A program made the translations under genes and the position numbers. Source: Escherichia phage ECO95 1-6-1. From it: a stretch of 1,648 bases of DNA. A model generated the notes under the pieces. That model ran no database searches, was not told where the DNA came from, and saw only the letters and a list, made by a program, of their open reading frames with translations. Positions within the stretch are counted from its first letter, which is position 1. Each line of letters begins with the position of its first letter. This document shows positions 1-1,648 of the stretch, one piece after another. The DNA is taken from the sequence record OR845764.1; one strand, 5' to 3'.

Positions 1-77
1 CCTGCAGGGCGTGGATCAGCGCTTCCTGTTCGGCCAGGCGCTGTTTCAGCAGGAAGATGTCGTCAGAAGAGATGTCG
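1..77. repeat. Copy 1 of an exact 77-bp direct repeat; identical to 1572..1648, which is tnpC 5' coding sequence on the minus strand
   Basis: Direct base-by-base comparison shows 77/77 identity with 1572..1648. Read on the minus strand it encodes the same coiled-coil peptide ([26 protein letters not shown]) and runs off the window start. Confidence 0.95.
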
Positions 78-104
78 GTAAGCGTACAGCGAGGGCCGTA
101 TTGA
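78..104. repeat. Putative right terminal inverted repeat of the IS66-family element (outside-in on + strand: GTAAGCGTACAGCGAGGGCCGTATTGA); inner boundary is approximate
   Basis: Begins with the GTAAGCG heptamer exactly at the breakpoint where the terminal duplication ends, and lies immediately past the tnpC stop. The partner left repeat is not in the window, so its length and pairing cannot be verified. Confidence 0.5.
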
Positions 105-114
105 CGGGGATGTG

Positions 115-1647
115 TTATTCAGCTGGCAGTGCTATGCGCCACGGAAGCAGTTCGCTGACCCGGTTGACCGGCCAGTCTGCTATGACGCCAAGCACATGGC
201 GAAGGTAGCTTTCTGGATCCACGTCATTCAGTTTGCACGTCCCGATCAGGCTGTACAGTAGCGCTCCCCGCTCACCACCATGATCAGAGCCGAAGAACAG
301 GAAGTTTTTACGACCCAGACTGACCGCCCGCAGGGCATTTTCAGCGATGTTGTTGTCGATTTCCACCCAGCCATCGTTCGCATAGTACGTCAGTGCCGGC
401 CACTGGTTAAGTGCGTACGCGAACGCCTTCGCCAACTCTGAGTGTCGCGACAGGGTCTTCATCTTTTCACGCAACCAGCTTTCCAGGGATTTCAACAACG
501 GTTTCGTTTTTCGCTGACGTTCAGCAAGCCGCTGCTCTGCCGGCATTCCCCTTATATCCGCCTCTATGGCGTACAACTGACCGATCTGCTCCAGGGCTTC
601 TTCCGTCAGTGCTGACGGGATGCGGACGTGCACATCGTGGATCTTTCGGCGGGCATGAGCCCAGCAGGCAGCTTCCGTTATCCCACCATTGCGATACAGC
701 TCGTTGAACCCGGCGTACGCATCCGCTTGCAGCACACCGCTGAAGCAGGCAAGATGAGTCTGCGGATGGATGCCTTTTCTGTCCGGGCTGTAAGCGAACC
801 ACACTGCAGGTGCCAACGCTGACCCTGCATTGCGGTCATCACGAACATACGCCCACAACCGCCCGGTCTTCGTCTTCTTATTACCCGGCAGCAGTACCTG
901 GACCGGGGTATCATCGGCATGGAGTTTGCCGTCAGTCATGACATAGCCATGAAGCGCCTCTTCCAGCGGAGACAGCAGCCGGCAGCATGCATCCACCCAG
1001 CCCGACAGCAGTGAACGCCTCAGCTCCACACCTTGCCGGCCGTATATTTCTGACTGGCGATACAGCGGGGTGTGCTCTGCATACTTCGAGGTCAGCACGC
1101 GGGCCAGCAGCCCCGGTCCGGCGATACCCCGCTCGATGGGCCGCGAAGGTGCAGGTGCCTGCACGATGGCATCGCACTGAGTACAGGCATGTTTTTCCCG
1201 TACCGTCCGGATAACCCGGAAGGCGCTACGCATCAACTCCAGCTGTTCGGCGGTATCCTCGCCCAGATAGCTCAGTGAACCGCCGCAGTTCGGGCAGCAC
1301 GGCGCCGCAGGCAACAGTCGCTTTTCGTCACGGGGTAGTGATTCAGGGAACGGCTTACGGGTGCGGGTCTGACGCAACGGACGCTGTACTGCCGGGTCAT
1401 ACACCCTACCAGTCAGCGTATCGCTCTCTTTCTGAAGCCGGTTCAGATCGGCTTCCATTTGTGCGATACGGCGGGAGACTTTTTCGGAACGACTGCCGAA
1501 GTTCATCCGGCGGAGTTTATCCAGCTGCGCCTGCAGATGGTCTATTTCGCGCTCCCGGTTGCTCAGCTTTTCCTGCAGGGCGTGGATCAGCGCTTCCTGT
1601 TCGGCCAGGCGCTGTTTCAGCAGGAAGATGTCGTCAGAAGAGATGTC
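115..1647 (-). CDS. tnpC: IS66-family transposase (TnpC-type DDE transposase), 5'-partial in this window; the longest ATG-initiated ORF is 115..1506 (463 aa)
   Basis: Seen: an uninterrupted minus-strand frame runs from stop TAA (117..115) to the window edge; the first in-frame ATG is at 1506..1504, and 47 further sense codons lie upstream with no stop and no ATG/GTG/TTG. The protein carries motifs I recognise as IS66 TnpC hallmarks: CxxC...CxxC zinc-finger cysteines (C71/C74 and C108/C111, nt about 1174..1296), LHADDT (D198 at 913..915), LQADAY (D262 at 721..723), CWAHARRK, and [14 protein letters not shown] (E389 at 340..342). The upstream 47 codons ([47 protein letters not shown]) have leucine/isoleucine at 3-4 residue spacing, like the TnpC N-terminal leucine zipper. 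Family assignment is from established knowledge of IS66 transposases, not a search. Confidence 0.93.
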
Positions 1648-1648
1648 G
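1572..1648. repeat. Copy 2 of the exact 77-bp direct repeat; part of the tnpC 5' coding region
   Basis: Identical to 1..77. It ends at the last base of the window, so the real extent of the identity beyond the window is unknown. Confidence 0.95.

Follow-up and report, generated by a model that had tools for sequence, protein, structure and literature searches.

ISEc8 is an IS66-family insertion sequence of Escherichia coli O157:H7, which is known from strains Sakai and EDL933 and listed in ISfinder. It occupies about 10-15 places per O157:H7 chromosome, and the complete element, as present in finished plasmids, is 2,442 bp long with the gene order tnpA-tnpB-tnpC. The terminal inverted repeats of the IS66 family typically begin with GTAAGCG. 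Transposition of IS66 is reported to leave a target site duplication (TSD) of 8 bp as its signature (Machida 1984, cited in PMC6778807).

From cyclic paths, de Bruijn assemblers of the SPAdes type produce contigs whose two ends overlap by one k-mer, and such an overlap is usually read as the mark of a circular replicon. The value 77 is a standard k in these assemblers, being for example the top k of SPAdes. The closest finished locus is a nested pair of ISEc8 copies in the plasmid pNZRM3614 (NZ_CP032794.1), which is also present in plasmids of the strains AC-3 and AC-5. No description of nested ISEc8 or of the pNZRM3614 junction was found among the papers searched.

The window analysed here, that is, the whole 1,648-bp stretch of record OR845764.1, was compared with each of these systems. 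Its element has the same tnpC and GTAAGCG terminus and, in the finished plasmids, the same 2,442-bp length and 8-bp duplications as the ISEc8 of Sakai and EDL933, from which the element itself does not differ; only the flank is special, being another ISEc8. There was no detectable difference from the pNZRM3614 nested pair, of which the window is the short-read-graph image. With SPAdes-type contigs it shares an overlap of standard k, and the contig was reproduced in a simulated k=77 graph, whereas the cycle is here a tandem repeat inside a larger molecule and branches at both vertices. Taken together, we put a probability of roughly 0.9 on the reading that the record is a k=77 contig representing one turn of a graph cycle, which would have arisen from a real nested ISEc8 insertion.

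The features of the window were as follows, with L002 denoting the finished pNZRM3614 locus.
Positions 1-77, minus strand: first copy of the 77-mer, nt 6-82 of the tnpC of the outer (target) ISEc8, forming the flank of the inner copy; graph vertex V2; equal to L002 6001-6077.
Positions 70-77, no strand: left copy of the TSD of the inner ISEc8, AGATGTCG, 8 bp; the right copy lies past the other end of the inner element at L002 8520-8527.
Positions 78-103, plus strand: terminal inverted repeat at the tnpC-proximal end of the inner ISEc8, found by comparing the two ends of the 2,442-bp element, with the boundary set by the TSDs.
Positions 78-1648, no strand: the unit of 1,571 bp, which extends from the IS terminus as far as the point of insertion within tnpC and lies in two head-to-tail copies in the finished plasmid.
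Positions 115-1648, minus strand: tnpC, IS66-family DDE transposase of 512 aa in its complete form, with the stop codon at 115-117 and an ATG that would fall at 1651-1653.
Positions 1572-1648, minus strand: the other copy of the 77-mer, at its original location in the tnpC of the inner ISEc8, nt 6-82.

The window is the tnpC end of ISEc8, and its positions 78-1648 were 100% identical to ISEc8 copies in thousands of records. The open reading frame list contained a single long frame on the minus strand, starting from the edge of the window at 1648 and ending with the stop codon at 115-117. Only the first 5 nt of tnpC are absent, the RefSeq gene being the equivalent of window 115-1653, and the Pfam domains LZ_Tnp_IS66, zf-IS66, DDE_Tnp_IS66 (E = 2.1e-106) and DDE_Tnp_IS66_C were detected in the translation. 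This 5′-truncated tnpC was the sole coding content of the window, in which neither the open reading frame list nor Pfam indicated a replication or maintenance function. The genes tnpB (L002 7703-8050) and tnpA (L002 8047-8427) lie directly upstream of tnpC in the identical copy, both outside the window. Window positions 78-88 read GTAAGCGTACA, and the other end of the element is the reverse complement, giving a perfect 11-bp match (19/26 when extended). Matching 8-bp TSDs were also found at eight further ISEc8 element boundaries at other loci. All family features tested were present, and the element is ISEc8.

The preliminary description had claimed a mismatch-free identity of the two window ends with a period of 1,571 bp. 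Both the repeat search and a direct string comparison gave the same result, with 77/77 identical bases between positions 1-77 and 1572-1648 and a start-to-start spacing of 1,571 bp. The chance of an exact 77-mer repeat in 1.6 kb is about 4^-77 per position pair, which excludes coincidence. The repeat is limited to 77 bp because the record ends there. It had been pointed out earlier that the window edge concealed the length of the duplicated segment, and the finished pNZRM3614 now supplies it, as the identity spans 1,571 bp there (L002 4507-6077 versus 6078-7648). The 77 bp would be the k of the assembler, and the true duplication is 1,571 bp. Homology far beyond 77 bp in a finished genome had been proposed as a sign of ordinary multi-copy IS repeats; such homology does literally exist, but its cause is a tandem, nested structure and not a set of dispersed copies.

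The 77-mer is directly followed by base 78, which is the G of GTAAGCGTACA and the outermost base of the tnpC-proximal IS end, and the join from 1648 to 78 links nt 6 of tnpC to this terminus. Since the IS terminus follows directly after the 77-mer, the junction is an IS end joined to the interior of tnpC. All 1,648 bp of the window are contained without a mismatch in pNZRM3614 (L002 6001-7648). A query of window positions 1-160, containing the junction, had single-piece 100% matches in only 3 of the 5,426 complete E. coli genomes, namely NZRM3614, AC-3 and AC-5, and in PLSDB pNZRM3614 was the only single-piece 100% match. The junction-bearing plasmids of all three strains are of the pO157 type and 92,653 bp long, and they come from two independent submissions that agree with each other. 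According to its record, NZRM3614 comes from Austria; it is an O157:H7 strain negative for stx. Thus, the real 1648-to-78 junction postulated in the preliminary description exists as one uninterrupted match in three finished plasmids.

The reciprocal junction, consisting of the other IS end, AGATGTCG and the tnpC start, was found as a single-piece 100% match in the same three plasmids. It reads …GTACGCTTAC AGATGTCG TTCATAAGCC…, or alternatively GGATGTACGCTTAC followed by AGATGTCG and TTCATAAGCCCG. Relative to the 2,442-bp reference element, L002 is laid out as outer copy 1..1571, inner copy 1..2442 and outer copy 1564..2442, all in the same orientation, and this 4,892-bp composite is flanked on both sides by GATTCATA, the TSD of the outer copy. 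The 1,571-bp unit occurs in two tandem copies (L002 4507-6077 and 6078-7648), and each of the three plasmids carries exactly two such units. The finished plasmids therefore hold a full ISEc8 within the tnpC of another ISEc8, bounded by an 8-bp TSD in the manner of a canonical insertion, as in the nested-copy option that had been raised before.

According to the proposed mechanism, a complete ISEc8 of 2,442 bp would have inserted itself, co-oriented, at nt 6-13 of the tnpC of an ISEc8 already in place, duplicating the 8-bp target AGATGTCG and yielding the 4,892-bp composite. The stretch of 1,571 bp between the tnpC-proximal IS end and the insertion point would then be present twice in tandem, and the other 879 bp, comprising the tnpC start, tnpB, tnpA and the other end, would be present twice further on. 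In a short-read graph, the 77-mer at the insertion point could continue either into the IS or across the junction to the IS terminus. Following the junction edge of 154 bp and then the repeat edge of 1,571 bp would lead back to the starting 77-mer and give a contig of 1,648 bp with identical 77-bp ends.

A k=77 de Bruijn graph was simulated from the finished locus L002, a de Bruijn assembler with this k having been deduced for the source sample from the length of the overlap. In this graph, the 77-mer ending at the insertion point had two successors, T for the normal IS continuation and G for the junction, and the 77-mer starting at the IS terminus had two predecessors, G for the junction and A for the plasmid flank. 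The junction edge measured 154 bp (window 1-154) and the repeat edge 1,571 bp (window 78-1648); a closed walk that set out from the branching 77-mer along both edges produced a 1,648-bp string equal to the window. The 1,571-bp edge was recovered at k=31 in the simulation too. A Logan contig of exactly 1,571 bp (L005, SRR8529113) is the reverse complement of window 78-1648 and gives independent support; the same contig was seen in 7 samples and breaks at the two breakpoints of the window unit. The former interpretation as a k=77 graph loop that arises from a real junction is supported in all parts that could be tested, with the refinement that the cycle has two edges and both vertices branch, so that it is no isolated self-looping unitig. 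A two-edge cycle with branching vertices makes the 77-mer end exactly at the IS terminus; an isolated cycle cut at an arbitrary place would end there with a chance of only about 1 in 1,571. The source assembler would accordingly have worked with k=77.

Taken by itself, the junction sequence would be identical whether it came from two units in tandem, from an array of more units or from a circle of 1,571 bp. It is very improbable that the contig represents a free 1,571-bp circle, formed by homologous loop-out or by auto-integration of an IS end into its own tnpC. Such a circle would yield the same junction sequence, and products of the loop-out type in the plasmids pMB41_1 and pN8B7-1 suggest that excision does occur. 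However, a circle without a replication function would neither be maintained nor reach a coverage sufficient for assembly, the tandem arrangement with both junctions and the TSD in finished plasmids suffices as an explanation, and the start of the contig exactly at a branching 77-mer implies that the ordinary IS continuation was present in the sample too. Of the junction sources considered previously, the circular molecule is thus unnecessary, as the sequence is embedded linearly in finished plasmids, while the nested IS copies are retained. A transient 1,571-bp circle is conceivable as a by-product and is not needed to explain the contig.

Even less probable is an amplification of the 1,571-bp unit to an array of at least three tandem copies in the source sample. 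Copy number is invisible in a graph cycle and unequal recombination can expand tandem duplications, but all three junction plasmids have exactly two units and the same length of 92,653 bp, and a truncated transposase gene offers no selective reason for amplification. A pure assembly artefact, in which the assembler joined dispersed ISEc8 copies into a chimera or took a wrong path among them, so that the contig came about without a real 1648-to-78 junction, would fit a multi-copy element with 10-15 places per O157 genome and the tangling of short-read graphs around IS elements, but is barely credible given that a de Bruijn cycle requires real k+1-mers over the junction, that the join falls exactly at the IS terminus, that the junction and its reciprocal with the matching 8-bp duplication occur in independent finished assemblies, and that the 1,571-bp Logan contig has the same two breakpoints in 7 runs.

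Under the preferred reading of a nested insertion, the source sample would carry the NZRM3614-type plasmid arrangement, and the strain would probably be of the NZRM3614 type. The inner ISEc8 copy is intact. The outer tnpC lacks the ATG and the first five bases, and the 2.4-kb insert parts it from tnpA and tnpB; because these are lost to it, the outer tnpC is probably non-functional, judging from the sequence. The RefSeq/PGAP annotation nevertheless lists the outer tnpC (L002 4544-6073) as an intact transposase of 509 aa (WP_115333691.1) starting on ATC, which is an isoleucine codon of the intact tnpC, and this call is probably an annotation artefact. As substrates for homologous recombination, the tandem 1,571-bp and 879-bp units should allow RecA to loop out one unit.

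Nesting of ISEc8 was not confined to this locus. At least 10 independent insertions of ISEc8 into ISEc8 were found, eight of them on the ~93-kb pO157, and both orientations occurred (loci L001, L003, L007, L008, L012, L014 and L015). They resemble the present pair in that one copy holds another, which is complete and has an 8-bp TSD, and differ in the insertion point, which lies at IS positions 363-370, ~475-482, 1438-1445, 1459-1466, ~1526-1533, 1984-1991 or ~2150 in the other nests versus 1564-1571 here. A graph cycle arises from co-oriented nests only. The characterized cases and the related partial structures were as follows.
p7636-1: co-oriented nest, site 1984-1991, 8-bp TSD CCTGTATC.
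pYB14-1: co-oriented, two full inner copies in one outer copy, TSDs TTATATCC and GGCCAGGC.
OkiPb01684 chromosome: co-oriented nest, site 1438-1445, TSD GTTTATCC (L012 3631-3638 and 6081-6088).
pEX262-1: inverted nest, verified, with overlapping target coordinates, site 1438-1445 (L014 6127-6134).
pO157 of strain 7.1_Anguil: inverted nest, verified, with overlapping target coordinates.
pMB41_1: [1..2442][1459..2442] within one TSD, ACTGAAAA (L001 4001-7426).
pN8B7-1: [1..370][1..2442] within one TSD, GCTCAGTC (L008 9639-12450).

The structures of pMB41_1 and pN8B7-1 are as would be expected if a nested pair had lost one tandem unit by homologous recombination. The 8-bp target GTTTATCC in tnpC (IS positions 1438-1445) was hit twice independently, by the co-oriented insertion in OkiPb01684 and the inverted one in pEX262-1. 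The nest searches favoured same-strand arrangements, and inverted nests were sought with chimeric queries, which returned 3 and 24 records; two nests were verified among these, in pEX262-1 and the pO157 of 7.1_Anguil. An orientation bias was considered, since the first seven nests were all co-oriented, but these came from a same-strand search and inverted nests were then found, leaving no evidence for a bias.

The two-piece matches H35, H36, H71 and H92 were rejected as nests, as they are internal deletions of single ISEc8 copies. Copies with internal deletions that keep both ends were seen at L009, L010, L011 (Klebsiella pneumoniae plasmid pINF237_02) and L013, where roughly IS positions 467-1304, 225-372 plus 645-1528, 508-1431 and 1708-1867, respectively, are missing, so that most of tnpC or part of tnpB is gone. 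One draft contig (L004; GCA_044612005.1, contig ABWFGS010000084.1, 1-3967) starts one base short of the breakpoint, at window position 1647. Past its ISEc8 end, the flank contains a tnpB of the IS66 family that has diverged and an IS66-like segment of ~70% identity, and it looks like an ISEc8 lying in or beside a different IS66-family element.

ISEc8 had inserted independently at least five times, in either orientation, within ~170 bp of the intergenic stretch between stcE and lpxM on pO157. The insertions, at ~4347-4516 in L002 coordinates with the IS removed (see also L003, L006, L007, L008 and L015), were these.
Carriers: SS52-type, NZRM3614, 7636, N8B7-2 and YB14-1.
TSDs: GGTCATTC, CGTTGAAC, GATTCATA and GCTCAGTC; in pYB14-1 there is no TSD and 46 bp are missing.

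In Sakai, EDL933 and about 200 further records, no insertion interrupts this stretch. It is made up of debris of the IS3 family, and a 401-bp empty-site query matched thousands of IS3 copies. Three occurrences of the IS66 terminal heptamer GTAAGCG/CGCTTAC, a candidate targeting signal, lie in the backbone of the hot spot. An origin of these insertions by excision from a canonical pO157 site and a subsequent local hop was rejected, as Sakai, EDL933 and about 200 others simply have nothing inserted at the SS52-type site. Therefore, the NZRM3614, 7636, N8B7-2 and YB14-1 insertions are independent and not relocations.

It is possible, though rather doubtful, that ISEc8 prefers targets within or adjoining another ISEc8, above all on pO157, whether through local hopping or through self-targeting. 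With such self-targeting, tandem products would shed units by recombination and give rise to transient circles of the kind that the 1,571-bp unit would form. Neutral tolerance is the alternative, whereby an insertion persists when it has struck IS debris or a copy of the IS that is redundant, and this is a sufficient explanation for the hot spot because the region is IS3-family debris. Peptides of the IS66 TnpB and TnpC proteins bind the beta sliding clamp (PMC3971601), and such binding could link insertion to replication.

The locus as such is nothing new, as the nested arrangement has already been deposited in finished plasmids and a terminal overlap is known assembler behaviour. Contigs with identical ends of length k are routinely flagged as circular plasmids or phages, and the present case calls for caution, as the cycle is a tandem IS segment within a 92.7-kb virulence plasmid. 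For transposon biology, the finding would add something only if the self-nesting of ISEc8 on pO157 proved to be a genuine targeting preference. As the junction is present in only three of the 5,426 complete genomes, it is usable as a lineage marker for NZRM3614-type stx-negative O157:H7.
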